Shown: piece after piece, positions 1 to 62,420 of the stretch
Layout of the letters: each line of letters opens with the position of its first letter
Numbering within the stretch: the stretch's first letter is position 1
Notes under the pieces: generated by a model
The model's input: only the letters and a program-made list of their open reading frames with translations
What the model was told of the DNA's origin: nothing
Database searches by the model: none
NCBI GenBank assembly: GCA_030654175.1
Contig: JAURXZ010000030.1
Span: 653,510-717,509, forward strand
Direction of reading: 5' to 3'
Length of the DNA stretch: 64,000 bases
Source: Bacteroidia bacterium
Lineage (GTDB): Bacteria; Bacteroidota; Bacteroidia; 2-12-FULL-35-15
Program-made: the position numbers and the translations under genes

Positions 1-1067
1 CTGCGATTTTTTTCTTCAGCAATTGCTTGCTGTTTTTCATTCTCGGCTTTTGTTGCGGCTTCTTTTTTATCAAATTCGTAATTCATTTCCTTACGGACAA
101 GCTCTTTTTTGTTTTCCTGGCTGAAAATAGTGTCTTTTAATGCAACTGCATTTTTGTAATGAACAAGCGCAAGTTCAAAACGGTTGGTTTTGGAAAAGAG
201 ATTGGCAAGGAAATTTTCGACATTCATTTCTTCCTTCATCGCTCCAATTTCCTTATCCATTGCCAATGCATCCAACAGATATTTTTCGGCTTGCGCATAT
301 TTTTTTGTATTTGTATATAAGGAGCCTATATTTCCGAGATGTCTTGCAATTCCATTTTTATCTCCAATTTCATTCGCTATTTTCAATGCCTTAAAATAAT
401 ATTCCAATGCCTTGTCGAAATATCCTTGATTTTCATAAACCTTTCCAATGTTGCCCAGTGTGTTTGCAATTTCTGCTTTATTTCCCAATGATTCTTTCAT
501 CTTCAGGGCTTTGAAATAATAATCCAGTGCTTTAGGGAAATCACCCAGATCCCTGTAAACACTTCCGATGTTGCCGAGCCAGATTGAAACATGATTTGTA
601 TTGCCCTGTTCTTTCGCCATTTTCAATGCCTTAAAACCATAGTCCAATGCTTTGGGATAGTCGGCCTGATCGTTATAGATAATCGCGATATTGCCAATTT
701 GTTTTGCCATTCCAATCTGATCATTCAACTCCTCGTATATATTTAAAGCCTTTAGCCAAAACTCCAGAGTTTTAAGGTAGTCGCCCTGATAATAATATAT
801 TATGCCAAGGATGTTGTAAGTATTTGCAAGTTCATTTTTATATGGAGGATTTAATTGTTTGGCAAGTTCCAAAGCAACGTTTCCATAATGAATAGCGGAA
901 TCGTAAAGTCCTCTGATCCGGAACTCCCCGCATAAATTGTTTAAATGAATTACTTTGTTGATGTCTGCTTTATCCTTTTTGAGCAGAGTTTGGATGGAAT
1001 CAATATTTTTATTTTGGCCTTTAAATGAAGCGGGGAAAAGAAAAAAAACAAACATAATGTATAACAT
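1..1067 (-). CDS. TPR-repeat / SpoIIE-type PP2C phosphatase paralog; only the N-terminal part lies in the window (gene 3' end beyond coordinate 1)
   Basis: Reverse strand translates from ATG at 1067 as MLYIMFVFFLFPASFKGQNKNIDSIQTLLKKDKADI, matching the N-termini of the downstream paralogs (QNQNIDSIQILLKKD). Bases 1-90 translate to MNYEFDKKEAATKAENEKQQAIAEEKNR, the coiled-coil segment that precedes the TM helix in the paralogs. Absent from the ORF track because it runs off the window edge. Confidence 0.6.
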   Translation of the reverse strand, partial: MLYIMFVFFLFPASFKGQNKNIDSIQTLLKKDKADINKVIHLNNLCGEFRIRGLYDSAIHYGNVALELAKQLNPPYKNELANTYNILGIIYYYQGDYLKTLEFWLKALNIYEELNDQIGMAKQIGNIAIIYNDQADYPKALDYGFKALKMAKEQGNTNHVSIWLGNIGSVYRDLGDFPKALDYYFKALKMKESLGNKAEIANTLGNIGKVYENQGYFDKALEYYFKALKIANEIGDKNGIARHLGNIGSLYTNTKKYAQAEKYLLDALAMDKEIGAMKEEMNVENFLANLFSKTNRFELALVHYKNAVALKDTIFSQENKKELVRKEMNYEFDKKEAATKAENEKQQAIAEEKNR

Positions 1068-1141: not shown

Positions 1142-3358
1142 TTACACTCTTACCCCAAACACACAAACATCATCTATCTGCTCTAAAGAACCTTTCCATT
1201 CGGTGAAATGATTTTTCAAAATTTCTTTTTGGTCATTCATTGGTAGTTGAGTATTCGCGACTATCAAATCTTCAAGTTGTTTGTATTTGAATTTTTTACC
1301 TTTAGGTCCACCAAACTGATCGGCATAACCATCGGAGTAGAGGTAAATGCTATCACCTTTTTGCATTTGTATTTCATTATTTGTGAAAGGGCGACTTTCA
1401 GGATAATAACCAATTGGCTGCTTGTCAGCTTTTATTTCTTCTAACTTTCCATTTCTAATTAGGTTGAGTGCATTATTGGCCCCTGCCCATTGTAATTCAC
1501 TGGTCTTAAGGTTAAGTCTGCACAAAGAAATATCCATACCATCTTTACTACCACCCGCTTCACCTGTTTGTCTAAGTTCATTAACAACTTTATCACGGAG
1601 TTGATTGAGGATATCGGCTGGATTTAATAAATGTTCCGATGCAACAATACCATTTAAAAAAGAAATGCCAAGCATACTCATAACCGCTCCCGGGACACCA
1701 TGCCCTGTGCAATCAACAGCAGCAAAGTACCAATGCCCTTGCTTTTCGACTCCCCAGTGAAAATCACCACTTACAATATCTTTTGGCATAAAAAGGATAA
1801 AATGTTCGGGCAGGTGAATGCTGATATGTGCTTTTTCACCCATCAAGGCATCCTGTATTCGTTTAGCATAACGAATACTGTCAGTGATATCTTTGTTTTT
1901 TTCCTCAATTATTTTTTTCTGGTTTTCGGTTTCTATATTCTTGATTTCTATTGTTTGTTTTTGTTTACGGGTTTTACGGAGTGAGCGAAAAATAAAACCT
2001 GCAAAAGCAAGGATTATCAACAAACCAGAAACAATTGACCGGGTTATGATTTTTTGTTTTCGGTTATTTTCTTCAGCAACGGCCTGTCGAATTTCACTCT
2101 CCTCTTTTATTAAGGCTTCTTTTTTTTCAAATTGATAATCCAACCCTTTTTTGATAAGTTCTTTTCTATTGGCCTCATTAAATAAACTTTTTTTCATTTC
2201 ATTGGAACGTTTTAAATAATAGAGTGCATACAATCTTGTTTTTTCCAGATTTAAAAGTTTATCACCAACGCTGTCAGGCAATGGAATGTTAGCCTTTTTG
2301 TAGAGGTCACTTAACACTTCGTAATCCTCTTTTACCCCTTCTTTAAAGCCAATGAAATTATCAAGATAGAGAGCGCGATGAAGGTAGCTTGACGATTCTA
2401 TATATTTCTTTTGTTCTAAATACAGCGAACCGATATTGCTCAACCAGGCTGCGGTTTCATTTTTATCTCCAAGCTCTTCGGCCATCTTCAATGCTTTGGA
2501 ATAACAATCGAATGCATCAGTATAATTCCCCTTTTTCTTATATATAGTTCCAATGCAGCCGAGTTGATTCGCAATATATTTTTTATTTCCAAGTTCTTTT
2601 GCGACACCCAATGCCTTAAAATAGCAGTTCAATGCTTTTGGATAATCTCCTTGTATTGAGTAGACATTGCCTATGTTTCCAAAATGCCTTACTATACTAT
2701 TTTTATCTTCTAGCTCTTCGGCCATCTTTAATGCTTTAAAATAGTAGTCCAATGCTTTAGGATAATCACGTTGGTTTTTATAAATAATTCCAATATTGCC
2801 TAAATGTCTTGCTATCCCGCTTTTATCTTCGATCTGTTCGGAAATTTTCAGTGCCCTTAAATAATAGTCCATAGTTTTTGTAAGGTCGCCTTCTTTTGAA
2901 TATACAAGTCCTAAATTACCTAAACTAGTGGCTATACCCATTTTATTGCCAAGTTCTTCATCGAGCCTTAACGCTTTATTATGAAAATCAATTGCACTGG
3001 AATATTCGGATTTAAGGAAATAAAAATTACCTAAGTTGCCATAGGTTTTGGCAAGGAGGGTTTTAGTATATTTTGTCTTTTCTGCCGGAGAAGGAAGTTG
3101 GTTAATGACATCAAGTGCCAGCTTGCTGAGGATTATTGATGTGTCAGGGTTTTGAAACATTAACAGCCGGCTCAGGGCGTTGAGGTGATTTACTTTATTT
3201 GTGTCGGATATATCTTTTTTAAGAAGTATTTGAATTGAATCAATGTTTTGGTTTTGAGCTTTTAAGGGATTTGTTAAATAAAAACAAGCAAATAAAATGG
3301 AAAGCAAGAGTATTCGGTTGCTGTAGAAGTGAAAATAAAAAAACCTTTGCACAATCAT
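1142..3358 (-). CDS. Tetratricopeptide-repeat sensor protein with single TM helix and C-terminal PP2C-family serine phosphatase (SpoIIE/RsbU-like) domain
   Basis: 738 aa. N-terminal signal-like hydrophobic segment, ~8 TPR units (recurring LGN.G..Y...G.Y.KAL.YY.KAL pattern), TM segment IVSGLLIILAFAGFIF, coiled coil, then PP2C/SpoIIE motifs (SGDFHW..., AAVDCTGHGVPGA, YSDGYADQFGG). Confidence 0.85.
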   Translation of the reverse strand: MIVQRFFYFHFYSNRILLLSILFACFYLTNPLKAQNQNIDSIQILLKKDISDTNKVNHLNALSRLLMFQNPDTSIILSKLALDVINQLPSPAEKTKYTKTLLAKTYGNLGNFYFLKSEYSSAIDFHNKALRLDEELGNKMGIATSLGNLGLVYSKEGDLTKTMDYYLRALKISEQIEDKSGIARHLGNIGIIYKNQRDYPKALDYYFKALKMAEELEDKNSIVRHFGNIGNVYSIQGDYPKALNCYFKALGVAKELGNKKYIANQLGCIGTIYKKKGNYTDAFDCYSKALKMAEELGDKNETAAWLSNIGSLYLEQKKYIESSSYLHRALYLDNFIGFKEGVKEDYEVLSDLYKKANIPLPDSVGDKLLNLEKTRLYALYYLKRSNEMKKSLFNEANRKELIKKGLDYQFEKKEALIKEESEIRQAVAEENNRKQKIITRSIVSGLLIILAFAGFIFRSLRKTRKQKQTIEIKNIETENQKKIIEEKNKDITDSIRYAKRIQDALMGEKAHISIHLPEHFILFMPKDIVSGDFHWGVEKQGHWYFAAVDCTGHGVPGAVMSMLGISFLNGIVASEHLLNPADILNQLRDKVVNELRQTGEAGGSKDGMDISLCRLNLKTSELQWAGANNALNLIRNGKLEEIKADKQPIGYYPESRPFTNNEIQMQKGDSIYLYSDGYADQFGGPKGKKFKYKQLEDLIVANTQLPMNDQKEILKNHFTEWKGSLEQIDDVCVFGVRV

Positions 3359-3376: not shown

Positions 3377-5455
3377 TTAAACTCTTACCCCAAATAAACA
3401 AACATCATCTACTTGTTCTAAAGAGCCTTTCCATTGTATGAAATTTTTTTTATAAATTTCTTTTTGATCCTTCAACAATAAATGGTTATTCGCTAAAATC
3501 AAATCTTCAAGTTGTTTGTACTTGAATTTTTTTCCTTTAGGGCCGCCAAACTGATCGACATAACCATCGGAATAAATGTAAATGCTGTCTCCTTTTTGCA
3601 ATTGTATTTCATGATTTGTGAAAGGGCGACTTTCAGGGTAATAACCAATTGGCTGTTTATCAGCCTTTATTTCTTCTAACTTTCCATTTCTAATAAGGTT
3701 GAGTGCATTATTGGCTCCAGCCCATTGCAATTCATTGGTTTTAAGATTTAGTTTACACAGGGAAATATCCATCCCGTCTTTGCTGCCGCCCTCTTCCCCG
3801 GTTTGTCGTAATTCTTTAATGACTTTATCGCGTAACCGATTAAGAATTTCGGCAGAGCTTAATAATTCTTCCGAAGAAATAATGTCATTAAGGAAAGATA
3901 TGCTAAGCATACTCATTATCGCACCAGGGACACCGTGGCCGGTACAATCAACAGCTGCAAAGTACCAATACTGTTGTTTTTCAGCTCCCCAATAAAAATC
4001 TCCGCTTACAATATCCTTTGGCATAAAAAGAATAAAATGCTCAGGCAGATGCATGCTTGTATGCTCTTCGTCTCTCAGTAATGCGCTCTGTATTTGTTTA
4101 GCATAATGGATACTGTCTGTGATGTCTTTATTTTTTTCTTCAATTATTTTTTTTTGAAGTTCGGTTTCGGCACTCTTGCTTTCAATTAGTTGTTTTTGTC
4201 TGCGAGTAATACGAAGTGTACGGAAAATAAAACCAGCGAACAATACCACTAATAAAAAACCAAAAGCAACAAAAAATATGATCATTTTTTGTTTTTGACT
4301 TTTTGCTTCTGCAACAGCTTGTTGTTTTCTGTTTTTTGCTTTTAATTCCTCTTCTTTTTTATCAAACTCATTATTCATCTCCTCGAGTTCAAGATTTTTT
4401 TTGAATTCGCTGCTAAAAATCAGATCTTCAATTGCAATATAATGTTGATAGTAATATATTGAACGCAAGCGCATTTGTTCCATATTTAGCAGTTCTCCGC
4501 CCACGCTATCAAGCAAAGGGATATTTGAACTTTCATAGAGGTTGCTTAAAGCCAAAAAAAGAGTTTTTTCTTCAACTTTTGCTCCCGTCTTTTTATTTAT
4601 TGCGAGTGCATTGTATAGATAATCGTAAGCTTTTCCGTAATTTTTTTGTTTAGTATAAATGGAGCCTATATAGACGAGCGTATTTGCTGTTTCCATTTCA
4701 TTGCCCAATTCTCTCTTCATATTTAATGCCCTAAAAGAATATTCTAATGCTTTAGGGTAATCTCCCGTACTTTCATATATGTTTCCTATAATATCAAGAG
4801 TCCTTGCTATGCTATTATTATTTCCGAGTTCTTCCTTAATCTTTAATGACTTCAAAGAGTAGTAAATCGCCTGGTGAAAATCGTGCATAGACAAATAAAC
4901 TCCTGCGATGTTATGCATAACAGCTGCAGCTAAGTTTTTATCATTTTGTTCTTGAGCCAAATTCAAAGCCTTGAAATAATAGTCTAATGCTCTGGGGTAA
5001 TTTAGTTGAAAAGCATAAGCAATCCCAATATTACAGAAGTTTTTGCTGATGCTTTTTTTGTTGCCGATTTCTTCATTAAGCTTTAATGCTTTTAAGGTAA
5101 AATCAAGTGCTCGCGGAAAGTCTGCTTTGTTCAAATGATAAACTCCAAGATTACCATAAGTATTTGCAAGCAGCGCAAATTTCCTTTTTCCTTTAATCGA
5201 GTTCAGGTGATTAATTATTTCAAGCGCCTGATTGCCCAGTAAAATTGAACTATCTAGGTTTTGATACATCAAAGCCCAGCCCAGGTCATTAAGGTGATTT
5301 ACCTTGCTAGAGTCTTCTTTGTCTTTTTTGAGAAGCGTTATCAGTGTGTCGATGTTTTTGTTTTGGGCAAATGAAGCCCCGCCCCAACCTTCTCCAAAGC
5401 GGAGGAAGAGTGAAAAAAGAATAAAAAGAAAAGAAATTTTATGATTGTATTTCAT
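3377..5455 (-). CDS. TPR / TM / PP2C (SpoIIE-type) phosphatase, paralog of 1142..3358
   Basis: 692 aa with identical architecture. The phosphatase domain is near-identical to its neighbour (SGDFYWGAEKQQYWYFAAVDCTGHGVPGAIMSML). The 4-nt ATGA overlaps the downstream ABM gene. Confidence 0.85.
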   Translation of the reverse strand: MKYNHKISFLFILFSLFLRFGEGWGGASFAQNKNIDTLITLLKKDKEDSSKVNHLNDLGWALMYQNLDSSILLGNQALEIINHLNSIKGKRKFALLANTYGNLGVYHLNKADFPRALDFTLKALKLNEEIGNKKSISKNFCNIGIAYAFQLNYPRALDYYFKALNLAQEQNDKNLAAAVMHNIAGVYLSMHDFHQAIYYSLKSLKIKEELGNNNSIARTLDIIGNIYESTGDYPKALEYSFRALNMKRELGNEMETANTLVYIGSIYTKQKNYGKAYDYLYNALAINKKTGAKVEEKTLFLALSNLYESSNIPLLDSVGGELLNMEQMRLRSIYYYQHYIAIEDLIFSSEFKKNLELEEMNNEFDKKEEELKAKNRKQQAVAEAKSQKQKMIIFFVAFGFLLVVLFAGFIFRTLRITRRQKQLIESKSAETELQKKIIEEKNKDITDSIHYAKQIQSALLRDEEHTSMHLPEHFILFMPKDIVSGDFYWGAEKQQYWYFAAVDCTGHGVPGAIMSMLSISFLNDIISSEELLSSAEILNRLRDKVIKELRQTGEEGGSKDGMDISLCKLNLKTNELQWAGANNALNLIRNGKLEEIKADKQPIGYYPESRPFTNHEIQLQKGDSIYIYSDGYVDQFGGPKGKKFKYKQLEDLILANNHLLLKDQKEIYKKNFIQWKGSLEQVDDVCLFGVRV

Positions 5456-5793
5456 TTGAATTCATAATCCCGTTCTACCAAACAAATACGGGTTTTGTAA
5501 TTTTTATACCAAATTGCTTTTCCATTTTTTTGAGCAACAAGATGTTCTGTATTCAATTTCCATTTTTTGATGGATTCCAGATCCTTCCAATATGAAACGG
5601 TGATTCCCAAATTTTCTCTCGCAAATTCTATCCCTAAAAATCCATCCTGTTGTTTGGCTAAGTTAATCATTCGTTCTGAAGTATCGGAATAACCTTCAAC
5701 TTCCTCGGTTCGCTCGGAAGTGAATATTACCGCATAATAAGGAGGTTTAGGTGTTTCAGCGAATAAATTCATATTTGTTATCGTATATAACAA
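5452..5793 (-). CDS. Small ABM-domain (antibiotic-biosynthesis-monooxygenase-like, ferredoxin-fold) protein
   Basis: 113 aa. The pattern YAVIFTSERTE...EGY...GFLGIE...SYWKDLESIKKWK...HLVAQKNGKAIW fits the ABM/Dabb domain. Start codon overlaps the stop of the upstream phosphatase gene (translational coupling). Confidence 0.5.
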   Translation of the reverse strand: MLYTITNMNLFAETPKPPYYAVIFTSERTEEVEGYSDTSERMINLAKQQDGFLGIEFARENLGITVSYWKDLESIKKWKLNTEHLVAQKNGKAIWYKNYKTRICLVERDYEFK

Positions 5794-5805: not shown

Positions 5806-5843
5806 AAAGCGATAAGTTTTAAATGAATAAAACTTATCGCTTT
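5806..5843. other. Perfect 15-bp-stem hairpin (aaagcgataagtttt / aaaacttatcgcttt, 8-nt loop)
   Basis: Read directly in the 5794-6126 intergenic region, just upstream of the ABM gene start on the minus strand. It is AT-rich, so it may be regulatory rather than a terminator. Confidence 0.5.
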
Positions 5844-5983
5844 TAAAATTAACTATAAAAGTTTTGCTTCTATTCAGGAGCGCACCTCTATAAAACTTCT
5901 AAAAAAACAAACTGTTCCAAAGTTCCAAACTATGGAAATGTTCATCAACAAATTTGATTGCGTGAGGGGTTGTAGCGAAAATC

Positions 5984-6011
5984 CTTCTCCTCGCCTTTTA
6001 GCGAGGAGAAG
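5984..6011 (-). terminator. GC-rich hairpin (cttctcctcgc / gcgaggagaag) followed on the minus strand by a T-rich tract; candidate terminator of the A2M gene
   Basis: 11-bp stem and 6-nt loop read directly from sequence, ~120 nt downstream of the A2M stop on the minus strand. Confidence 0.5.
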
Positions 6012-6126
6012 ATTGAAGCGGAAAGCCAGACCCGCAGCACAGCGAAGGGGCACGCCCTAATAAATCCAATAATAAAAAACGTTTTTACAAAACCTGTTCA
6101 GCAGAACTATATCATTTTACAACAAA

Positions 6127-9100
6127 TTATTTTCCAACCTTCACTCTGATACCTTCTGAGTTGCTTGAAAACTCAGGAGCATACATACATTGAATGGAAG
6201 TAATGCCGTTTGAGAAATTACCATTATGTGTTACCACTAATGGGTATTCAAAAACATAGGTTCCTTTGGGTAACCGGTCAAAAAAGAAATTTGTTGCTGC
6301 ATCACGTGTACTTTCGTAATACCCTAAACCATCCTGCCATTTGTATCTTGAAATAACATTGGTTGGTTCAAAACCAGATGCACGCATATCTTTCATTTGT
6401 ACATATTCCATATCTCTATCAACACGCAACTCGATACGAACCTTAATTTTGTCTCCCACCTTCAATAACGTTTTTTCCGTTATAGGTTCTATCACGGGAC
6501 CGGCATCAGTGTTTTTTTGCAGGAACAATTGTTTCTTCAAATTCAATGGTGTTTTTGAAGGAGTGATCTTGTCCAACTGCTCAAAATATTGCCAATACAA
6601 AGCGCCCCAACTAACACCTTCATCTTTTTTCACAACTGTAACTTCACCCATTTTAGGATTAATATCACCTCCGCTCCAGGATGTTTTAAAATAACCCGTG
6701 CCTGCTTCCTGTTTTAAATCAGGCATTTTTTTAGGATCAATTTTTTGTTCACCCAAACTAATTTCCACATTGCTTTCTGTTGCTAACCAGTCTGTTCCCC
6801 TAAGCAACAATGCATACACCGCTTCAGTTGTTGCTTTAGTCGTTTTCCAATCCTGTGTTTGTTTTGATTTTAGTAACCATACTTTCAAATCATCCACTGC
6901 TTTTTTATCATTTGATACTTCATCAAACGCTTCGATCAAAAGCGCTTGTGCTTCAATCGGTGCCTGATACCAATAAAATCCATCATAATTCTCTTTCCAG
7001 TACATTCCCATTTCTTCGCTGTTCAGAGAGTTCTCTTTCAAGGATTTCATTATATCCTTAGGAGTTACTTTATCATCATAACGATGTAATGCCAATGCGA
7101 TCATTCCTTGCATATACCGGCTGTTTTGCAACCAATATTTTTTCTCCTGGCCTTTATAATAATCAAATGCTGTTTGATTACGATTGTCAATACTAATGTC
7201 CTTAAAATAACTGCGGGCATACAAGTATTGAATTTGCTGGTAACCTAAGTGATTATCATTAAGATGTGCTCTATCGTGTTTCAATATCCATTCATAATCT
7301 TCGCGAATACGATTATCCAGATACTTCACTCCCTCTTTCACCATATTCCATACGGTTGCATCATTATGAATATTTTTAATACCCAGGTGATCCAGATGCC
7401 CCATTCCTGTGATGATATGCTGCGTGATGTAACGATTATCAGGCATTCCTTCAAACCACGGCCACCCACCATTTGACGATTGCTGTTTTTGCAGTTTTTT
7501 TAACGCAACGGCCAACTCATTACTCATTTTATTTAAATCGAACAATACCGCAACACGTTTTTTGCGTTCCGTCTCATCTTTTGCATCCAACACCCATGGG
7601 GTTTCTTCAAGCATCAACGATTTTAATTCCTGATTTTTTTCCAAGTTGGATAGGAGCGCTTTTGAATCCGGAGTGTTTTTCCAGGAATCAAATACCGCTT
7701 TTATTTTTGGTGATGAGTTTGCAATATGCGAAGCAATGCTGTTTGCATAAAAACGTGAAAAAGTTTGTTCCGAACATTCATAAGGATATTCCATCAAATA
7801 TGGCAACGCTTGAACTGCATACCATGCAGGGTTTGCAGTAAACTCCAGCGTAAGTTTATGATTACGTAAAGTTGTGGAACCATTACTTTGATTAATCAGT
7901 TTTTCGAAACGGAATGTTTTGGTTTGGTTGTTTCGGATAGGCAATGGCATTGTTTCAGTAACCAGCATTCTGTTAGTTAATACAGGTAATGCCATTTCCT
8001 CTCCATCTGTAAAGTTCCCGGCCTTAGCAACCACTTTATAGGTGATGGCCCCTACACCTTCGGGAACAGTTATACTCCAGCTTAATGCAGAGCTTTGCCC
8101 TTTTTTAGATGTGAATGAAGTTTGCCCCTCTTTTGTAAGTTGGGCAGTAATATCCTTCATGGATGTTGCATCATAAAAATAGACCTGTGCGGTTCCTGTC
8201 AGATCGCCATCAGATAAATTTGAAATTTTTGTACTGAATTCCATTTTATCATTTTCACGAAAAAAACGAGGAGCGTTTGGTATTACCATCAAGTCTTTTT
8301 GCGTAACCAATTCTTTTTGAATAGTGCCAAATTTCAAATCTTTGGTATGTGCAAAACCCATCATTTTCCATTTGGTTAACGCCTCCGGAATAGTAAATTT
8401 TATTATTACATTTCCATCTTTATCTGTTTCCAGTTGAGGATAGAAAAAAGCTGTTTCAGCAAAATTACTTCGTGCAGCAACTTTTGACATGTCTTCTCCA
8501 CCGCCTGATTTTTCTTCGGGTTCCTGATTTTGTGATTCACCTGTGGAGGCTGTTGTAACATCATTAAGATAACCACTGTTGGAATCTTTTTTCGGTGATT
8601 CTTTTTTATCTTTACTATTTCCTGATAATTCACTTTCATCACTCTCTGCAGATTTTTCTTCGCGAGCCAAAGAACCACCCATTGCAGGAGCACTCATACT
8701 TCTGGATGCCATTTTTTGTCTGCGACCGCCTCCGCCTTCACCATCCATATCATCACCATAACCATAATAGCCATTACTATATCCGAACCAATTTAAATGA
8801 TCGTAATAACGGTATACACCTGATGGATATCTGTTCCACTCAATATTAAAAACCTGCGCATTCGCGGTACCAAAACCACTATTTACATCCCAATATAAAT
8901 TGGAATAATAATTATTGTAAATATCAAAATACCAATAATTGGGCTTAAAAGCATCTAATGACGCATCGTACAAGGTTGCCATCATTTCAGCCGCCAATTT
9001 ATCTCCTTTTTTATCTTTGATCTTTACTTTCCATTCTTCCTGCTGTCCGGGAAGTAATTTATTGCGGAAGGTTTCAAATTCAATATCCAATTCCTTATTT

Positions 9101-12100
9101 GTATATGGCACAGTAATCACACCATCGTGCATGTAGGACCGATTATTTTTTATAAATACACAATGAAAAGAAAAATTACCACGGTGTTTTTCTTCAACAG
9201 GAATTTCAATTAATTTCTGTTCTTTATTAAGTGTGATATACTCTTTTTTAACGATCTCGCCCTTGTGTTCTATTTCATAAAGCACTTTTACATTGTTTTC
9301 TTTTGAGCCGATCACAAACTGGGCTTTGGCGCCAGGTTCAACAGGACGAACAGTGATCATATTAAACCAATCAATATTGTTACCCGGCACTTCGCTTCCG
9401 CTGTTAGAATAAACAGTAAAATATTTTATTTCTTTCACATCTTCGCCATAGGCATCTTTACTATGTGCCTCCATAACATATACTCCCTTTTTCCATGTAT
9501 TAAGATTTGCGATCTTTACAGAGTCGTTCATATTTGGAGATGAAATTTTGCCACTTGCAGAAACTATTTCGGCCGTATTTTTAAATGCTTTTTCAAAAAC
9601 TTTTTCCCCTCGTACCCATTTGTACATATTGTTTTCGTCCTTGTACTCATCATTAGGAAAGGTTTTTTCAAATTCATCTTTACTCAATAAAAATTTATCG
9701 GGCTGAGTCCAGGCACGTGTACGATATGTTTTTTCAGGCTCTTTCAATTTATAGATCTCTACTTTGCCTTGTGCAGCCTGAAACTGACCACTCATATTGG
9801 TAGTAGAAATTGTAAAAGCCTCTTTATTTTCTTTCTCAAGCAAAGCCGGAATGTTTATATCAAGCGTCAATGCTGTGTATGCAACCCTCACATTCGTCTG
9901 TGAACTGTGTGTTTCACCATTGATATCGGTAACATCGGCATAAACCGTAAAGGAGTATGTTGGTTGATACGATTTAGGAATACTAAGATCGGGTTGCGCT
10001 TTAAAATCAATAAAAAAAGCACCTGTATCATTTGAAGTAGTAACACCGTTTGTAATTTCCATTTGCGGAGACTGAGGGTAATAACCTCTCCACCAATACC
10101 ACCAATAAGGGAAGGATGCATTTCTTACCACACGGTATTTTACTTCAGCACCATCAATTTTAGCGCCTGAATAGGCCTTAGCAAGGCCTTCAACTTTTAT
10201 CTTTTCGTCTAAACGAAAACTGCCTTTTACCGGATTAAAACTTACTTCGAACTTAGGACGCTTATACTCTTCCACCGAAAAATAAATAGATCCGCTACCA
10301 TTGCTTAAACTCATTTGCCCATTAAGAACCCCACTTGGCGTTGTGAATGAACCGTTGAAAGTACCATACTCATTGGTGGTTAAACTTACATCGGCCACTT
10401 TCTGAGAATTAACATCATAAAAAGTAACTGTAGTGGATGTTTTGGGCATTATTTCATTTGTTTCACCATCGGTATTAATCATTATGCCTTTGAAATAAAC
10501 GGTCTGTCCGGGTCTATAAATAGCCCTATCCATAAAGAAGAACGTTCTTGGTTGCTTGCGTTTTTCATCAATATATGTTTTGTACTGATAAATTGCATTG
10601 TCCGTTTGAAGACGATCTACCTCCACTTTACCATCCCCTGTGGCAGATGGAGCATTGTAAGAAAAATCCACACTAAAATTTCTATAATCACCAACCGGTG
10701 GAACATTAAAATATCCGGTTTCATCGCTTGTGAATTTTTCTGATCTTACATATTCATATTTACGTAAAGTGTAGTTGTATTTTTCGTAATACAATTGTGC
10801 GGATACTCCTTTCAATGGAGCGCCATTTTCACGGTGTTGTAAATAAAAATCATAACTGCCATTTGTCATTTTCCGATTTATATAGCTGATGTTTGACGAC
10901 CAGATCGGAGCATATGCCACACCATTTTTTTTATAAGAGAATGTTTTGTCAGACCCTATAAGTATCACATAATGTCCGAGTGGCAGTTCGGGTATTTTTA
11001 TTTCTGTGGAATGTGATTGATAATCTTCATCAACCGGTAACTCAATTGTCCATTCCTTTAATGGTGCAAGTTTTAAATATTGCTTGATCAATTGTTCGCC
11101 ATAATAACGTTCAACAGATCTATTATATTTATCAATATCCATTTGTGCAATGCGCACATAAACTGTTTTTACATTTTTATATGTTAAAAGCGCGCGGAAT
11201 GGTTGGTTAGGAAGCGCCACCTTATCTGTAATAAAATCAATGGAATGTTCATTTATCTGAGCTTTCAGCACTTCACAATTAATGGCACCATCACTCTTTG
11301 GATATTTTTTAATTACAGCATCACAAACCTCAAGCGCTTGCTTTTTCAACCACTTGTATTCCTCTGATTGCAAAGGCTTGTATTTATTACCTTGTTCAAA
11401 GTACACTTTAGCTATTTCATAACTTACTTCGGCTGAAGCTGGATTTGCGGCTAAACGTTTTTCCAGATTTTGTAATGCCTTCAGATATAAACTATCTTTT
11501 ATTTCCGAAACAGATTTGTTTTTTACAAATTTCAATCGTTTTAAGTCAACGTCAATTAAAGCGATCTCTCCATGTCCTTCCTTGTATGAAAAGGAGTTGG
11601 TTGCGGAGTGAAACTTTATAAGGTCCTGCAAAATTGTAAGCGCATAATATTTGGAAGACAAGGTGTCTTTTGTTTCAATTTTAAGTTTTGAGAACGACTC
11701 AAAATCATTAAAATAATTATTATCATTTAATTCGAATTTGTAAGCCGGACGAATGATGTCGGGCTCTTCGCTCATATAAAAATCAACGGCACGGTGTGCA
11801 ACAAAATCATATAAGGTTGGGCGAAATTTACGTGAGTTGTTGTTTTCTTTTACTAATATCTCATCGTAAATATTAAGAGGGGTGCGCTTTAAACTATCAA
11901 CACTTTCAAGTGAAGCCTGATAATTTTTTATGACCTGAGAAAAAATTGTTTTTAAATCCCAGGTAGTTATATCATCATTATCAAAATTAACAGTGGCTGT
12001 GCGGTTATAAAATTTCCAACGGTTGTTTTGATAATACTGCCAATAACTTTCGGCTATCATGGATTGCAAAACAGGCTTCACCGGATAGGTGGCTTCTTTG

Positions 12101-12435
12101 GCCTCTTCATTTAATTTGTTGAGTGCTTTCACCAAAGAATATTCTTCGATGTATTTTTCAAATTTCATCCGATGGATGATGGCTTTTACAAATTGAGGTG
12201 AATTGTTTTCGGCTTTTGCTTTATCGTAAATTCCAGCCACCACCTCCAAGGCGGATTTGTTCAGGCCTTTTGCAGTGAGCGAATCGACCTTTTTCCATTC
12301 TTTAACATAATTGCTGCCCTTAGGGAAAATTAATAACATCGTGTTTTTATTTTTTTTATAAGTGGTGATTGTAAATGCTGTTGCAATCAATGAAATTGCG
12401 ATCAAAGCAATAACAGATATTCCCTTGTATTTCAT
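6127..12435 (-). CDS. Bacterial alpha-2-macroglobulin family protein (MG domains, thioester motif CSEQ, bait-like Ser/Glu/Gly-rich region)
   Basis: 2102 aa. N-terminal signal/anchor MKYKGISVIALIAISLIATAF. Low-complexity bait-like segment GEGGGGRRQKMASRSMSAPAMGG...SGGGEDMSK, then SNFAETAFFYPQLETDKDGN (A2M N-terminal region signature), then the thioester site EYPYECSEQTFSRFYANSIASH. Confidence 0.9.
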   Translation of the reverse strand: MKYKGISVIALIAISLIATAFTITTYKKNKNTMLLIFPKGSNYVKEWKKVDSLTAKGLNKSALEVVAGIYDKAKAENNSPQFVKAIIHRMKFEKYIEEYSLVKALNKLNEEAKEATYPVKPVLQSMIAESYWQYYQNNRWKFYNRTATVNFDNDDITTWDLKTIFSQVIKNYQASLESVDSLKRTPLNIYDEILVKENNNSRKFRPTLYDFVAHRAVDFYMSEEPDIIRPAYKFELNDNNYFNDFESFSKLKIETKDTLSSKYYALTILQDLIKFHSATNSFSYKEGHGEIALIDVDLKRLKFVKNKSVSEIKDSLYLKALQNLEKRLAANPASAEVSYEIAKVYFEQGNKYKPLQSEEYKWLKKQALEVCDAVIKKYPKSDGAINCEVLKAQINEHSIDFITDKVALPNQPFRALLTYKNVKTVYVRIAQMDIDKYNRSVERYYGEQLIKQYLKLAPLKEWTIELPVDEDYQSHSTEIKIPELPLGHYVILIGSDKTFSYKKNGVAYAPIWSSNISYINRKMTNGSYDFYLQHRENGAPLKGVSAQLYYEKYNYTLRKYEYVRSEKFTSDETGYFNVPPVGDYRNFSVDFSYNAPSATGDGKVEVDRLQTDNAIYQYKTYIDEKRKQPRTFFFMDRAIYRPGQTVYFKGIMINTDGETNEIMPKTSTTVTFYDVNSQKVADVSLTTNEYGTFNGSFTTPSGVLNGQMSLSNGSGSIYFSVEEYKRPKFEVSFNPVKGSFRLDEKIKVEGLAKAYSGAKIDGAEVKYRVVRNASFPYWWYWWRGYYPQSPQMEITNGVTTSNDTGAFFIDFKAQPDLSIPKSYQPTYSFTVYADVTDINGETHSSQTNVRVAYTALTLDINIPALLEKENKEAFTISTTNMSGQFQAAQGKVEIYKLKEPEKTYRTRAWTQPDKFLLSKDEFEKTFPNDEYKDENNMYKWVRGEKVFEKAFKNTAEIVSASGKISSPNMNDSVKIANLNTWKKGVYVMEAHSKDAYGEDVKEIKYFTVYSNSGSEVPGNNIDWFNMITVRPVEPGAKAQFVIGSKENNVKVLYEIEHKGEIVKKEYITLNKEQKLIEIPVEEKHRGNFSFHCVFIKNNRSYMHDGVITVPYTNKELDIEFETFRNKLLPGQQEEWKVKIKDKKGDKLAAEMMATLYDASLDAFKPNYWYFDIYNNYYSNLYWDVNSGFGTANAQVFNIEWNRYPSGVYRYYDHLNWFGYSNGYYGYGDDMDGEGGGGRRQKMASRSMSAPAMGGSLAREEKSAESDESELSGNSKDKKESPKKDSNSGYLNDVTTASTGESQNQEPEEKSGGGEDMSKVAARSNFAETAFFYPQLETDKDGNVIIKFTIPEALTKWKMMGFAHTKDLKFGTIQKELVTQKDLMVIPNAPRFFRENDKMEFSTKISNLSDGDLTGTAQVYFYDATSMKDITAQLTKEGQTSFTSKKGQSSALSWSITVPEGVGAITYKVVAKAGNFTDGEEMALPVLTNRMLVTETMPLPIRNNQTKTFRFEKLINQSNGSTTLRNHKLTLEFTANPAWYAVQALPYLMEYPYECSEQTFSRFYANSIASHIANSSPKIKAVFDSWKNTPDSKALLSNLEKNQELKSLMLEETPWVLDAKDETERKKRVAVLFDLNKMSNELAVALKKLQKQQSSNGGWPWFEGMPDNRYITQHIITGMGHLDHLGIKNIHNDATVWNMVKEGVKYLDNRIREDYEWILKHDRAHLNDNHLGYQQIQYLYARSYFKDISIDNRNQTAFDYYKGQEKKYWLQNSRYMQGMIALALHRYDDKVTPKDIMKSLKENSLNSEEMGMYWKENYDGFYWYQAPIEAQALLIEAFDEVSNDKKAVDDLKVWLLKSKQTQDWKTTKATTEAVYALLLRGTDWLATESNVEISLGEQKIDPKKMPDLKQEAGTGYFKTSWSGGDINPKMGEVTVVKKDEGVSWGALYWQYFEQLDKITPSKTPLNLKKQLFLQKNTDAGPVIEPITEKTLLKVGDKIKVRIELRVDRDMEYVQMKDMRASGFEPTNVISRYKWQDGLGYYESTRDAATNFFFDRLPKGTYVFEYPLVVTHNGNFSNGITSIQCMYAPEFSSNSEGIRVKVGK

Positions 12436-12581: not shown

Positions 12582-14765
12582 TTAAACTCTAATTCCAATC
12601 ACTAAAATATCATCCACCTGCTCACAATTTCCTTTCCACTGTTGGAGCTGTTTATTTAAAATTTCTTTTTGCATGCGCATTGGCTTATGGCAATTCGCCA
12701 AAAACAACTCTTTCAATTGTTTGGACTGGAATTTTTTACCTTTCGGTCCACCAAACTGATCAACGTAACCATCGCTGAATGTAAAAATACAATCGCCTTT
12801 TTCTAATGGGATCACTGTGCGTGTGAATGGTTTTTCTATACCAATATGTTTTCCTACAGGCATTTTATCTGGTTTAAATACCAATAGTTCACCATTTCTA
12901 ATAATATAAAAAGAATTATTGGCGGCAGAATATTCCAATTCCATTTTTTTAAGATCGAAACGACACAGAACAGTATCCATTCCATCTTTCCCCTCTTCGG
13001 AAGACCCTTCAGGGTTAACTGCTAAAATTATTATTCTACGTAATTCATTAAGAATTTCATCCGTATGTTTAAGATGGGATTTGGAATAAATAATTTCATT
13101 AAGAATCCCCATACTGATCAAACTCATAAATGCACCCGGTATTCCGTGGCCGGTGCAATCAGCTGTACAAACATACAGGTCGTTATCTTTTTCCATCAAC
13201 CAATAAAAATCCCCACTCACAATATTTCGAGGCTGATACAAAATAAAATAATCGGAAAGGCGCTGAGAAATATACCTTTCAGATGTTAAAAAAGAAGATT
13301 GAATTCGTTTTGCATAGCTGATACTCTCGGTAATTTCTTTATTCTTTTGGCTGATCTCAATATTCGCTTTTTGTTTAATCCGATAACGGTTATAAGCAAG
13401 CAACGCAAACAACAATAACAATATACTTACTCCAATAGAACCATTTTTAACAACATTCTGGTTTTTTAACTTCGCCTCTTGTAATGATTTGTCTTTGGTA
13501 AGCAGTTCGATCTCTTTTTCTTTTTTATCAGTTTCATATTTAGTTTGTATTTCCGCCATGTTTTTTGAATTGTTTTCATTCATAAGCGAATCTTTAATAG
13601 TGGCATGATGTCTAAAATAAGTATATGCATTTTTAAAGTCTTCTTTTTTTAAGTATGCTTCTGAAAGTTCTTCATTACCTTCCATCAATATTTCCTTACT
13701 TTTAATAGATTCAGCAAGTACTAAACTTTTTTTTAGATATTTCAATGCCTTTTCAATATCCCCTTTATTAGAATATAAAGTACCAATATTGAGCAATGAT
13801 TTTGCGCTTCCATCTTTATTTTCAATATCATCATTTATAAGCAAGGCTCTCTCATAATATTCTAAGGCTTTTTCGTAATTTTTTTTGTTGCTGTATATGT
13901 TTCCGATATTCATTAGAGAAATTGCAGTTGCGGTTTTATCTTTAATTTCTTCAGTAATTCGCAAAGATTTTAGATAATATACCAATGCAGTATCATTGTT
14001 TTTTAGTTTTTCATAAACATTTCCAATATTAGTTAGGGATTTATTAAGACCCGCTTGACTTTGCACCTCAGTGCTGATTGCCATCGCTTGTTTATAATAG
14101 GTCAAAGCGCTTTCGTAATTCCCGCCTGCCTTATAAACATTCCCAACTCCTAAAGAAGGGTTAATCATTAACTCCCTATTGCCAAGCTGCTCAAATGTTT
14201 TTAATGCCTTGATATAATACTCCAAAGCTTTTTCATAATTCCCTGTATAAAAATACGAGGTCGCAATATTGCTAAGTGGCATGGATTTTTTATCTCCAAT
14301 GAATTCACAAATTTCTAAAGATTTTAAATAATTTTTTAAAGCTTTTTCATAATTTCCTTGATTTATATTAACATTCCCAATACTATTTAAACTATTCGCA
14401 ATTCCTTTTTTATCGGAAATACCTTCTCTGACAGATAATGCTTTAGAATACTGCTCTAATGCTTTATCAAAATCCCCTTGAACAAAATAAATAGCACCAA
14501 TTGCGCTATAAGAGTTTCCTATCCCTTTTTTAAAATCAATTTTTGCAGAAAGTTTTAATGCTTCATGGGAATGTTCTAAAGCTTTTTCAGGGTTTTTTTT
14601 TCTGTATTCTACTGACAGAGCATTTAGAATATTTATTTTTGATGTGTCGACAGAATTTTTTAATTCATTTTCGAGACTATCTATTTTATTGGATTGGGGA
14701 AAGCAACTTGCAGGATGAAATAAAATGCAAACAAAAATCAAAAAGGAAAATAAAAAATATTTCAT
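12582..14765 (-). CDS. TPR / TM / PP2C (SpoIIE-type) phosphatase, fourth paralog
   Basis: 727 aa with signal peptide, TPR units, TM segment SIGVSILLLLFALLAY, and the phosphatase block SGDFYWLMEKDNDLYVCTADCTGHGIPGAFMSL...FSDGYVDQFGG. Confidence 0.85.
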   Translation of the reverse strand: MKYFLFSFLIFVCILFHPASCFPQSNKIDSLENELKNSVDTSKINILNALSVEYRKKNPEKALEHSHEALKLSAKIDFKKGIGNSYSAIGAIYFVQGDFDKALEQYSKALSVREGISDKKGIANSLNSIGNVNINQGNYEKALKNYLKSLEICEFIGDKKSMPLSNIATSYFYTGNYEKALEYYIKALKTFEQLGNRELMINPSLGVGNVYKAGGNYESALTYYKQAMAISTEVQSQAGLNKSLTNIGNVYEKLKNNDTALVYYLKSLRITEEIKDKTATAISLMNIGNIYSNKKNYEKALEYYERALLINDDIENKDGSAKSLLNIGTLYSNKGDIEKALKYLKKSLVLAESIKSKEILMEGNEELSEAYLKKEDFKNAYTYFRHHATIKDSLMNENNSKNMAEIQTKYETDKKEKEIELLTKDKSLQEAKLKNQNVVKNGSIGVSILLLLFALLAYNRYRIKQKANIEISQKNKEITESISYAKRIQSSFLTSERYISQRLSDYFILYQPRNIVSGDFYWLMEKDNDLYVCTADCTGHGIPGAFMSLISMGILNEIIYSKSHLKHTDEILNELRRIIILAVNPEGSSEEGKDGMDTVLCRFDLKKMELEYSAANNSFYIIRNGELLVFKPDKMPVGKHIGIEKPFTRTVIPLEKGDCIFTFSDGYVDQFGGPKGKKFQSKQLKELFLANCHKPMRMQKEILNKQLQQWKGNCEQVDDILVIGIRV

Positions 14766-15035: not shown

Positions 15036-17459
15036 TTATTCCACTTGTATCATTTTTATTGTGATGATTTCGCTGCCAATTTTTAATTTCAATAAATAAA
15101 CACCTGCTGTCAACCCTATATTATCTGCGTTAAATTTACAGGTAACGACTCCTGCTTGTTTTTTTTCATTTAATACTTCGGCTACCTTTTCCCCCAATAA
15201 ATTAAATACATCCAATTGAATCACATTTGCATCCACTATTGTAAACTGAATAGTGGCAATCCCTTTATTAGGATTTGGATATAAATGTATGTTTGTTTTA
15301 GACGGAGTGATTTGCTTCACAGTTGCTAATGGATCAATATAAATCGAACCCGAATCAGCTATAAAGTCAAGGTTATTGATATTTTGTAAACTATCTAAAC
15401 ATTCATGATACGTTGAATCCATCGGCAAACCGGGGATATTTACATAAATTTTATAACATCCGGCTGGAAGATTGCTAAAAATATACTTTCCATCTACATC
15501 AGTAGATGTATAAGCAATGATGCTGCCAGGGTCCCCTTCTAAACCGATTGGAGTCCCTTGAATGGGCGTCCCAGCTGTGCGGTCATAACCAAAACCTTCT
15601 AAAATAACACCTCCTAATGAAGCACTTCCATTAAGGGAAAGAAGCCCTCTCATATTAATGGTTGCTGTTGAGAAGGTTGTAAATGGGGATGTGATAACTA
15701 TAGGAGTAGCTTGCTCCCAATGTGTAGAATCGGAAAAGTATGTTGCGGCAAGCAAGGGGTAAGTCAAACTATCGGCTATTGCTAATACAAGATAACTATC
15801 TTCATAAACCTCCAAGAAAGCATAATCACCAGCGGTTTGAATTGAAGTGATATCAACTAAATGCATTGCAGCATTCCCATCATTTGTATACTGTGTATAT
15901 AAATAAACATAACCGGCAGTAACAGGGTTTCCGATATTATCAAAAACATTTCCTGAAATTGTAGAGGTTCCGCCCGGGCGATATTTTGCAAAAAAGATAT
16001 CCTGTGTATTAGATGAACTCACGCGGTTTGCTATTCCGGCACCAACATCAAAATTTACCGTGCCTTGATAATATCCTGTAATGTATACATTTTCTGCTGT
16101 ATCAACAGCAATACCTGTTCCTGCATCTTCAACACCTGCACAAAGGCTTTTCGCCCATAAGTAATTCCCTGCATTATCATATTTTGCGAAAAATATATCC
16201 CCTCCATCTGACCCGCTTGTATGGGTGTCATCAACTGTTATTGAAGGGTCAAAATCGGCATCGCCCTGGAAAGATCCTGTTATGTATATATCGCCTTCAT
16301 TGTCAACAACAATGCATGATCCAAGGGCGCTATCAACAGCAGAAGTGGCCGGTGCTCCAATTGGATATGCAAATTCATATTCTCCGAGCTGATTGTATTT
16401 TGCGTAAAATAAATCTTTAACCCCCTTAGAAGTTTGAATTTGGCCACCCATTGGATCAAAAGCTATGGTGCCACTGAAAGCACCTGTTAAATAAAATTTG
16501 CCGGCAGTATCCACTGCAATGCTTGTTCCCACACCAGAACCAGCGCTTCCACTGAGTTTTTGGGCAATAACATATCCTCCAAACGAGTCATATTTAGCAA
16601 AAAATATTGCGTCTTGGGTGCCTAAGGATATTTGATTAATAATACCCGGTCCCGGGTCAAAATCAACCGAACCTTTAAAAGATCCTGTCAAATAAGCATT
16701 TCCTGATTTATCAACAGTAATTGATGTAGCGATATCACGGTCTGCACCTCCTATTTGATTTGACCATTGAAAAATCCCTGCGTTATCGTACTTTGTAATA
16801 AATATATCTTCAACACCTCCTATCGCTGAAAACAGGGCCCCTCCTATGGTTGATTCAAAATTCGCACTTTTAAAAACCCCTGTTACATATACATTTCCGG
16901 TGATATCCAGAGCAACACTATTGGTAATATCAACTAATAAGCCTCCTTGGCTTCTTACCCACATAAAATTTCCACTATTATCATATTTTGCAACAAAACC
17001 GTCCAGTTCTCCTGAGCTTGACGCATAAGATATCACTTGATTGGATGTATTAAAATCCACAGTACCCCAAAAAGCACCGGCTAAGTATACGTTTCCAGCA
17101 GTATCAACTGCAATACTTGCCCCTGAAGACCAACTTGATAAATTATATGCATCTAGTGTTTTCGCCCAAACACAATCACCATTGGCAGTGTATTTTGCGA
17201 AAAAACAATTACGAACTCCTGAACCTACTAAAGAAACGGGAGTTCCGAAAGGATTAAAATCGGCAGGTGCAATCCCTGCGCCAAAAGATCCAGTTACATA
17301 TACAAAGCCCGAATCATCAACAGCAATGCTATATCCTTTATCGTTTCCAAGGCCGGTAGAACTAATACCTTTAACCCATTTATAATTTATTTGAGCTATT
17401 GCATGATTAAATGCTAAACAACCCAATAGAATGAAAAAAAATTGTATTTGTTTTTTCAT
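15036..17459 (-). CDS. Secreted SBBP-type beta-propeller repeat protein with T9SS type A (Por) C-terminal sorting domain
   Basis: Repeated GNVYVTG(S/A)F... SBBP-like blades throughout. C-terminal ~85 aa (NIHLYPNPNKGIATIQF...GVYLLKLKIGSEIITIKMIQVE) has the T9SS type A CTD pattern. Start set at MKKQIQFFFILLGCLAF (signal peptide); the ORF-track start at 17507 adds 16 unlikely residues. Confidence 0.8.
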   Translation of the reverse strand: MKKQIQFFFILLGCLAFNHAIAQINYKWVKGISSTGLGNDKGYSIAVDDSGFVYVTGSFGAGIAPADFNPFGTPVSLVGSGVRNCFFAKYTANGDCVWAKTLDAYNLSSWSSGASIAVDTAGNVYLAGAFWGTVDFNTSNQVISYASSSGELDGFVAKYDNSGNFMWVRSQGGLLVDITNSVALDITGNVYVTGVFKSANFESTIGGALFSAIGGVEDIFITKYDNAGIFQWSNQIGGADRDIATSITVDKSGNAYLTGSFKGSVDFDPGPGIINQISLGTQDAIFFAKYDSFGGYVIAQKLSGSAGSGVGTSIAVDTAGKFYLTGAFSGTIAFDPMGGQIQTSKGVKDLFYAKYNQLGEYEFAYPIGAPATSAVDSALGSCIVVDNEGDIYITGSFQGDADFDPSITVDDTHTSGSDGGDIFFAKYDNAGNYLWAKSLCAGVEDAGTGIAVDTAENVYITGYYQGTVNFDVGAGIANRVSSSNTQDIFFAKYRPGGTSTISGNVFDNIGNPVTAGYVYLYTQYTNDGNAAMHLVDITSIQTAGDYAFLEVYEDSYLVLAIADSLTYPLLAATYFSDSTHWEQATPIVITSPFTTFSTATINMRGLLSLNGSASLGGVILEGFGYDRTAGTPIQGTPIGLEGDPGSIIAYTSTDVDGKYIFSNLPAGCYKIYVNIPGLPMDSTYHECLDSLQNINNLDFIADSGSIYIDPLATVKQITPSKTNIHLYPNPNKGIATIQFTIVDANVIQLDVFNLLGEKVAEVLNEKKQAGVVTCKFNADNIGLTAGVYLLKLKIGSEIITIKMIQVE

Positions 17460-17724
17460 GTGTCCGAGATTTAAATGTTGTATGCCAAAGATAGTACAAA
17501 AAATCAATTTTCCTACTCTAAAATTCAGGCATTAAGTCTAACAACATCAGGCCTGAAATCAATAAATAGTTTTTATAAAAACTGAAAAAACAATTCTAAT
17601 TGGGCCTGAAATCAGCCTTTTAAAAAAGGCGAGGGCCTTTAGTTGAACTATTCAAAATTTTTGAATTCGAATTTGAATTTTTGAATCTGAGCGCAGGAAA
17701 AAAATTGAAATAAAAAACAGAAAA

Positions 17725-23797: not shown

Positions 23798-23843
23798 ATT
23801 TACCGAATAGAATATCATTCTATAAAGATAATAAGATTAATTC

Positions 23844-49825: not shown

Positions 49826-49885
49826 TACTTAGAACATTTATTAATTAACCCGTTGGTGAAGCATAAATCATACAGCAATCATGAT

Positions 49886-53143: not shown

Positions 53144-53157
53144 TCGTTTGTGTCGAT

Positions 53158-55647: not shown

Positions 55648-55700
55648 GAATAAATTTTCTTTTATTTAATTTACAATATGAATATAGCCTCTGTTTTCAA

Positions 55701-62267: not shown

Positions 62268-62420
62268 CCTTTGCTATTTTGGCAAATTAAAATTACTGAA
62301 AACAATAGTTTTGAAAGGTAATAAAAAAGATGCTGTAAATTGGAAAATAGTTGCATTGGGAGGACAAGCTATATCAAAACGAAATATTGAGATATCAGTA
62401 TATCAAGAAAAGAAAGAAAT

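Follow-up and report, generated by a model that had tools for sequence, protein, structure and literature searches.

Introduction

To our knowledge, bacterial macroglobulins have been studied almost exclusively in Proteobacteria, and the lipid anchor of the proteobacterial proteins, together with their link to PBP1c, has shaped the idea that they serve "periplasmic defence and repair". The locus described here raises the question of how far that picture extends to a macroglobulin of the Bacteroidota. It lies within 64,000 nucleotides of a Bacteroidia bacterium (assembly GCA_030654175.1, contig JAURXZ010000030.1, positions 653,510 to 717,509), a stretch that was analysed as a whole and is called the window below. 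On its minus strand, a long gene had been flagged in a sequence-only reading as an alpha-2-macroglobulin (A2M) homologue with a thioester motif, a long bait-like linker, no lipobox cysteine and no pbpC neighbour, followed by two hairpins.

It is likely that this gene encodes a thioester-containing protease trap of the A2M type. The subfamily to which it belongs occurs chiefly in Bacteroidota, with rarer cases in allied phyla, and is very common but uncharacterised. Within this subfamily, a variant of the bacterial type I A2Ms, the gene is ordinary, and databases already call such proteins "alpha-2-macroglobulin family protein". The features that had been flagged are all real, but they are common to a large family and are therefore its norm rather than peculiar to this gene; a helical N-terminal domain of about 350 residues had gone unmentioned.

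Domain organization and fold of the protein

The open reading frame is intact and encodes 2102 residues (coordinates of all features are given in Table 1). In Pfam, the domains MG2, A2M_BRD, A2M and bMG10 are matched, all four above their curated cutoffs, and the E-values of bMG10, A2M and MG2 listed in Table 1 are far below chance expectation; A2M_BRD scores 29.9 bits against a cutoff of 22.7. Sequence searches of the Protein Data Bank (PDB), with the single sequence as well as with a profile, gave weak matches, confined to the MG2-type domain of eukaryotic A2Ms and of YfhM, the A2M of Escherichia coli. The protein is therefore distantly related to everything that has been studied, and a comparison of folds was required.

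For this purpose two AlphaFold models were built from alignments of 61 sequences. In the model of residues 1003-2102 (predicted local distance difference test, pLDDT, 64; predicted template modelling score, pTM, 0.48) a beta domain is followed by a stretch of low confidence, by beta domains, by a helical block of about 340 residues (1537-1877, pLDDT 70-94) and by further beta domains. When this model was compared with the PDB by Foldseek, the top matches were the Salmonella A2M (4u48, 1.9e-26) and the E. coli A2M known as ECAM (5a42, 4.2e-26), followed by TEP1, A2ML1, C3 and C5, with whole A2M, C3 and TEP chains matched. Together with the Pfam domains, these matches bear out the claim of A2M homology.

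The sequences of E. coli K-12 yfhM and pbpC were taken for comparison. A family profile aligned by hhalign is collinear with YfhM over approximately residues 395-2099 (YfhM 165-1649, probability 93%), which puts residues 398-590 on bMG2-bMG3 and the A2M_BRD domain on YfhM 759-905. The protein thus has tandem macroglobulin (MG) beta-sandwich domains as well as a helical thioester domain (TED), carrying the CxEQ motif, between two beta segments (residues 1382-1533 and 1890-1953) that are consistent with a split CUB domain. It is a collinear homologue of the type I A2Ms of bacteria and comprises an MG array, an MG domain that carries the bait, a further MG domain, CUB, TED and MG10.

Between A2M_BRD and the bait-like region lies an aromatic-rich segment (residues 1165-1225) in which W1168, W1182, W1200, L1214, W1216 and F1217 are invariant in the family and in which AlphaFold confidence is low; judged from the topology of A2ML1 (PMC9156758), it may be the equivalent of the LNK region of eukaryotic A2Ms. 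The Pfam A2M domain begins within an invariant motif, ARSNFAETAFFYP (residues 1320-1333), whose R1322, N1324, E1327, T1328, F1330, F1331 and P1333 do not vary in the family, and the A2M signature AETAFFYPQ that had been read from the sequence is indeed present at residues 1326-1334.

Conservation of the thioester site

The motif YECSEQ occupies residues 1552-1557, with CSEQ at 1554-1557. In BLASTP, the query LPYLMEYPYECSEQTFSRFY is aligned with KELKAYPYGCLEQTASGLF of YfhM, and the collinear profile alignment by hhalign gives the identical register; C1554-Q1557 therefore falls on C1187-Q1190 (CLEQ), the thioester pair of YfhM (PMC4498604), as expected if the CSEQ noticed in the sequence stands at the thioester site.

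The site is also well conserved. In a set of 77 sequences, comprising the query and, each from a different species-level genome, 76 relatives of 43-95% identity, CxEQ is found in 73 (with A, S, T, V, N or M as x), and among 121 close homologues nearly all have YPYEC[AS]EQ and just three lack CxEQ. Tyr stands four residues before the cysteine (Y1550) in 69 of the 77; its equivalent in the Salmonella A2M is Y1175, which is mutated in PDB entry 4u4j. In the MG10 domain, TRDAAT (2043-2048) lies opposite RDDR of YfhM, a partial match in which R-D is kept, and QCMY (2082-2085) lies opposite ESMY, with [CS]MYAP (M2084/Y2085) present in 71 of the 77. In YfhM these MG10 motifs shield the native thioester and, after activation, bind the cleaved bait (PMC4498604). 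The protein thus contains both the CXEQ motif of type I A2Ms as defined in PMC5764988 and the residues of their pocket lock, namely Tyr before Cys and RDDR/ExMY-type motifs in MG10, and that they are conserved as a set speaks for a functional thioester lock.

N-terminus and predicted localization

No cysteine precedes C371, so that a lipobox cysteine is missing at the N-terminus, as had been noted from the sequence; a lipobox-like motif occurs in just one of the 121 homologues. The N-terminal lipoprotein signal typical of type I A2Ms, which in YfhM is LAGC at residues 15-18, is accordingly not found here. Across the family, the N-terminus consists of a basic start, a hydrophobic core and A-x-A followed by F, with Ala at position -3 in 88 and at position -1 in 104 of the 121 homologues. 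The C-terminus is formed by bMG10 and has no type IX sorting domain; a match to Por_Secre_tail at about residues 952-994 was rejected as a type IX sorting signal, being internal and below cutoff (E 1.4e-4), and is treated as generic similarity between beta-sandwiches. Such an arrangement suggests that the protein is probably exported by Sec, cleaved after A20 and soluble in the periplasm.

It is possible, if rather doubtful, that the N-terminal segment is instead left uncleaved and serves as a signal anchor, by which the trap would be held at the inner membrane, on its outer face, in place of the lipid anchor of YfhM. The uncharged run of 21 residues from I6 to Y26 could span a membrane, AlphaFold gives a single helix over residues 3-31, and the characterized bacterial A2Ms associate with the inner membrane (PMC5764988). 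However, the small residues conserved at -3 and -1 (A18 and A20, in the 88 and 104 homologues mentioned above) are typical of a signal peptidase I site, and the flank KKNKN that follows the segment carries more basic residues than the one before it, which would disfavour a stable anchor with its N-terminus inside. Cleavage and release into the periplasm are thus the preferred reading.

A hypervariable region at the bait position

The low-complexity run that had been proposed as a bait region, GEGGGG...GEDMSK, is present, but it extends over residues 1232-1318 and is 87 residues long rather than about 110. Its position agrees with the proposal: it lies between A2M_BRD (1031-1138) and A2M (1328-1414), opposite YfhM 905-975, an interval that takes in the bait R923-L942, disordered in the cleaved crystal structure (PMC4498604), and that the same two Pfam domains bracket in YfhM. 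The run ends at ARSNFAETAFFYP, whose counterpart in human A2ML1, according to HMMER, is VRQYFPETWLWD; the R-x-x-F-x-ET motif adjoins the C-terminal end of the predicted A2ML1 bait S695-D726 (PMC9156758), a placement that is approximate because chain and precursor numbering may be offset. In the AlphaFold model, residues 1111-1379 have a pLDDT below 50 nearly throughout, including a disordered insert at about 1149-1333, and the protein thus carries, as other members of the superfamily do, a flexible insert that ends at R-x-x-F-x-ET.

The region is variable in length as well as in sequence. The conserved anchors G1218 and R1322 enclose 103 residues in the query and 62-134 (median 90) in the 77 sequences, and the query is therefore typical of its family. 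Family-wide identity drops to 22% at residues 1251-1300, compared with 60-90% elsewhere, and relative to a homologue that is 97% identical overall the bait-like region is 77% identical and the rest 98-99%. Against three relatives, the ratio of non-synonymous to synonymous substitutions (dN/dS, Nei-Gojobori) is 0.27-0.50 in this region and 0.03-0.05 in the rest, so that it evolves about 10 times faster than the remainder of the protein and, as far as substitution rates indicate, is under strongly relaxed constraint. Positive selection on the bait is unsupported, dN/dS being below 1 throughout. In its position, its predicted disorder and its hypervariability the region is consistent with a bait.

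Several short islands recur in the bait-like regions of the 121 homologues, namely [YIV]RG[AGS]R (27), EEK (56), KKE (49) and TT[AS][ST] (36), at counts well above those of shuffled controls; shared ancestry is uncontrolled in these counts.

The same stretch could be a mutation-tolerant spacer or a site processed by a protease of the cell itself, as in the maturation of C3 and C4, rather than a sensor of foreign proteases, with the thioester used for, e.g., covalent attachment to components of the envelope. In favour of this, the dN/dS values of 0.27-0.50 point to relaxed constraint rather than positive selection, the length of the stretch is 2-3 times that of the YfhM bait, and the semi-conserved islands ([YIV]RG[AGS]R, EEK, KKE) could be specific sites of processing or binding. 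Nevertheless, we regard this explanation as improbable: the insert stands at the topological bait position of every A2M-type inhibitor studied and has the same R-x-x-F-x-ET end, conservation extends to the MG10 motifs to which the cleaved bait binds in YfhM, and no anaphylatoxin-like fold is predicted in the low-complexity stretch.

Comparison with characterized macroglobulins

Type I A2Ms, represented by E. coli YfhM (ECAM; 5a42, 4ziq and 4rtd) and the Salmonella SaA2M (4u48), are the best structural matches. The likeness to YfhM is collinear from its second MG domain to the C-terminus, and type I proteins share with the present one the position of CxEQ, the Tyr before Cys, the xMY and R-D motifs of MG10 and a disordered insert at the bait position; both would be Sec-exported envelope proteins, export being predicted here. 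On the other hand, the LAGC lipobox of YfhM is replaced by an ATA/F site and its bMG1 by the helical domain of about 350 residues, and where YfhM has a bait insert of about 55 residues, about 20 of them disordered, a hypervariable bait of about 93 residues lies here within an insert of about 157 (P1165-A1321). The bacterial MG signatures bMG1, bMG2, bMG3, bMG5 and bMG6, as well as CUB_A2MG and TED_complement, are matched in Pfam by YfhM and not by this protein.

Eukaryotic monomeric thioester inhibitors, i.e. A2ML1 (7q1y), CD109 (8s3o) and TEP1 (2pn5), resemble the protein in the R-x-x-F-x-ET motif after the bait, in an insert within an MG domain that consists of LNK plus bait and in a TED inside CUB (PMC9156758), and A2ML1 is the best sequence-level match in the PDB (profile E 6.6e-12 on the MG2-type domain). 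They are thioester-dependent monomeric traps (PMC9156758), as the present protein may be. They differ in having CGEQ where this family has C[ASTVN]EQ, in being glycosylated and extracellular and in the lack of a helical N-terminal domain; the bait of A2ML1 (S695-D726) measures about 32 residues.

Type II macroglobulins, such as MagD of Pseudomonas aeruginosa and YfaS of E. coli, are likewise large and periplasmic, with many MG domains and a bait region, and have a signal sequence without a lipid anchor (PMC5764988). They are defined by a missing CXEQ and by a six-gene mag operon (PMC5764988), whereas the present protein retains CxEQ and its gene stands alone; no six-gene operon of the magABCDEF type was seen among the gene neighbours or in the related loci L002-L004, where no search was aimed at Mag profiles. 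A type II (YfaS/MagD-like) identity of the protein, as would follow from the name "uncharacterized protein YfaS (alpha-2-macroglobulin family)" that JGI gives to several homologues, is highly improbable and the label is rejected, since CxEQ is present and conserved, its absence defines type II (PMC5764988) and no same-strand, operon-like genes directly follow the A2M gene in the window or in the related loci listed.

By the CXEQ criterion (PMC5764988), the protein would thus be classed from its sequence as a type I bacterial macroglobulin, in which three features typical of type I, i.e. the lipoprotein anchor, bMG1 and a pbpC neighbour, are missing.

Distribution of the family

More than 2000 proteins match at E <1e-10, the best full-length matches being 2044-2134 residues long, and these homologues are named "alpha-2-macroglobulin family protein", "MG2 domain-containing protein" or "YfaS". 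A search of a contig index gave no record of an identical protein. When one genome per species was scanned, a relative was found to be encoded in at least 594, most of them from Bacteroidota. Locus details were taken from the best 80 of them, nearly all of which match from about residue 40 to 2100 and which come from Flavobacteriales, Cytophagales, Chitinophagales, Saprospiraceae and Bacteroidales. A few of these 80 bear the label Cloacimonadota, Chitinispirillaceae, Ignavibacteriaceae, Acidobacteriota or Synechococcus; since every one of them is a metagenome bin, some of the labels may be binning errors. Cultured species among the matches listed are Aquimarina litoralis, Gelidibacter pelagius and Dawidia soli, and the closest locus among the matches listed (L005) belongs to a Bacteroidota metagenome bin, with 95% identity and synteny with the window. 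One related contig (L008) has at its cut end (1-70, plus strand) a match to a group II intron domain (RF00029, 47.8 bits) that is unrelated to the macroglobulin.

Genomic neighbourhood and downstream hairpins

The absence of a pbpC neighbour, claimed from the sequence, holds for the whole window: a tblastn search in all six frames with E. coli PbpC gave no match in the 64 kb, and Pfam scans of the large open reading frames of the window revealed no PBP1c, transglycosylase or transpeptidase. The same search in 83 related loci (1.66 Mb) found no pbpC adjacent to the gene and one match about 9 kb from it, and the loci L002-L004 contain neither a PBP gene nor an operon-like run of genes with the A2M gene. 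Therefore, the macroglobulin gene is a stand-alone unit throughout the family. Adjacency to pbpC (PBP1c) has been described for "a number of bacteria" and is typical, not strictly defining, of type I A2Ms; it is seen neither in the window nor in the 83 related loci.

Both hairpins that had been pointed out downstream of the gene are real, and their stability far exceeds that of shuffled controls. The AT-rich one (5806-5843) recurs without change in L005, about 35 nucleotides past the stop codon, and is probably the terminator of the macroglobulin gene. The GC-rich one (5983-6012; 13 pairs, -22 kcal/mol, z -5.3) is the core of a match to the Flavo-1 RNA motif, the only Rfam match in the window. 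This motif is located inside a stretch of about 240 bp (approximately 5868-6108) that is missing from the syntenic L005, and no Flavo-1 match occurs in the six closest loci among the matches listed; it is therefore part of an inserted element unrelated to the macroglobulin, and a functional link between the two is ruled out on these grounds. "TATAG" stands at both edges of the extra stretch, a possible target-site duplication.

The neighbouring genes are all on the minus strand. Three paralogues that combine TPR repeats with a SpoIIE/PP2C phosphatase flank the macroglobulin gene, and in a more distant relative (L003) two SpoIIE genes with a Y_Y_Y sensor lie just upstream of its macroglobulin gene. 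Further away, five consecutive PKD/SprB-repeat genes with CHU_C type IX secretion domains occupy 45938-63908 (minus strand), the largest of which (55701-62267, minus strand) encodes 2188 residues.

Table 1. Coordinates of the macroglobulin gene, its protein features and neighbouring elements in the window.
Feature	Residues	Position in the window	Strand	Evidence or remark
Complete coding sequence, alpha-2-macroglobulin family protein, stop codon included		6127-12435	-	Open reading frame list, translation, Pfam, homologues
Probable Sec signal peptide (MKYKG, hydrophobic core, A18-T19-A20/F21)	1-20	12376-12435	-	Read from sequence
All-helical (TPR/alpha-solenoid-like) N-terminal domain	~40-395	11251-12318	-	Without counterpart in E. 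coli YfhM
About five MG beta-sandwich domains	398-1010	9406-11244	-	
Pfam MG2	631-712	10300-10545	-	E 6.7e-16
MG domain bearing the bait-region insert (Pfam A2M_BRD)	1031-1138	9022-9345	-	E 7.8e-07
Conserved Tyr/Trp/Asn-rich segment, possible LNK equivalent	1165-1225	8761-8943	-	Family conservation
Hypervariable, predicted disordered Ser/Gly/Glu/Lys-rich bait-like region	1226-1318 (93 residues)	8482-8760	-	
MG domain after the bait (Pfam A2M)	1328-1414	8194-8454	-	E 8.3e-19
Helical thioester domain (TED)	~1537-1877	6805-7827	-	AlphaFold secondary structure, Foldseek
Thioester motif C1554-S-E-Q1557	1554-1557	7765-7776	-	Alignment to YfhM C1187-L-E-Q1190
C-terminal MG10 domain	1967-2088	6172-6537	-	Pfam bMG10 E 4.7e-32, hhalign
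Flavo-1 RNA motif (RF01705)		5955-6036	+	Rfam 53.7 bits, gathering score 42
Hairpin resembling an intrinsic terminator, 16-bp stem and then a T run		5806-5843	-	-20 kcal/mol, z -9.2
TPR-SpoIIE phosphatase, three paralogous genes		1142-3358, 3377-5455, 12582-14765	-	
ABM monooxygenase gene		5452-5793	-	
Gene of a type IX-sorted protein with SBBP beta-propeller repeats		15036-17507	-	

Proposed mechanism

The most likely mechanism of such a protein is that of a classical bait-triggered covalent trap. Its domain architecture and conserved residues are shown by the comparisons above; its export, cleavage and trapping are deduced. The steps of such a trap are taken from studies of ECAM, SaA2M and A2ML1 (PMC4498604, PMC5764988, PMC9156758). 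The protein would be exported by Sec, its signal peptide cut after A20, and released into the periplasm, where a protease that reaches this compartment would cut the disordered bait of about 90 residues (1226-1318). With this cut, TED and MG10 would no longer be locked together, and the exposed C1554-Q1557 thioester would link the protease covalently via a lysine at the protease surface, with the MG domains closing around it. The helical-repeat domain stands where the E. coli protein has its lipid anchor and MG1, and may dock the present protein to a partner or to the envelope.

Several points weigh against the assignment as a thioester protease trap. Identity to the characterized A2Ms is very low (11-12% in structural alignments), a search of NCBIfam with the 2102 residues gave zero matches and a Pfam scan of the protein detected no TED. 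The moderate quality of the C-terminal model means that domain packing and a buried thioester are predictions at most, and localization and signal cleavage are deduced from the sequence alone. The fast evolution of the bait with dN/dS below 1 fits any disordered linker and is not bait-specific. Finally, a literature search revealed no biochemistry for any member of the subfamily, and it returned nothing on Bacteroidota macroglobulins of this form, which is absence of evidence only.

A more ambitious reading, which we consider unlikely, is that the family constitutes a third, mechanistically distinct class of macroglobulins: a single-gene trap soluble in the periplasm, in which docking to an envelope component through the helical domain replaces both lipid anchor and PBP1c and in which a long bait with semi-conserved islands is tuned to invading proteases and also to those that the cell itself secretes by the type IX route, during their passage through the periplasm.

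Two genes for exported peptidases, an S41 peptidase with PDZ and an M1 peptidase with Por_Secre_tail (20192-21838 and 21854-23818, minus strand), lie less than 10 kb from the macroglobulin gene, an observation that bears on the speculative idea that the trap would protect the periplasm from secreted proteases of the cell itself.

Significance

For this window the practical result is modest, in that the gene is a normal member of its family. The family itself represents a very widespread form of macroglobulin, found mainly in Bacteroidota, in which the thioester machinery is kept without a lipid anchor or a link to PBP1c, and which has in addition a helical domain at the N-terminus and a bait that is two to three times as long. 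Biochemistry on a cultured representative could reveal whether these traps depend on anchoring and PBP1c for their function, and which proteases their mostly free-living hosts guard against.

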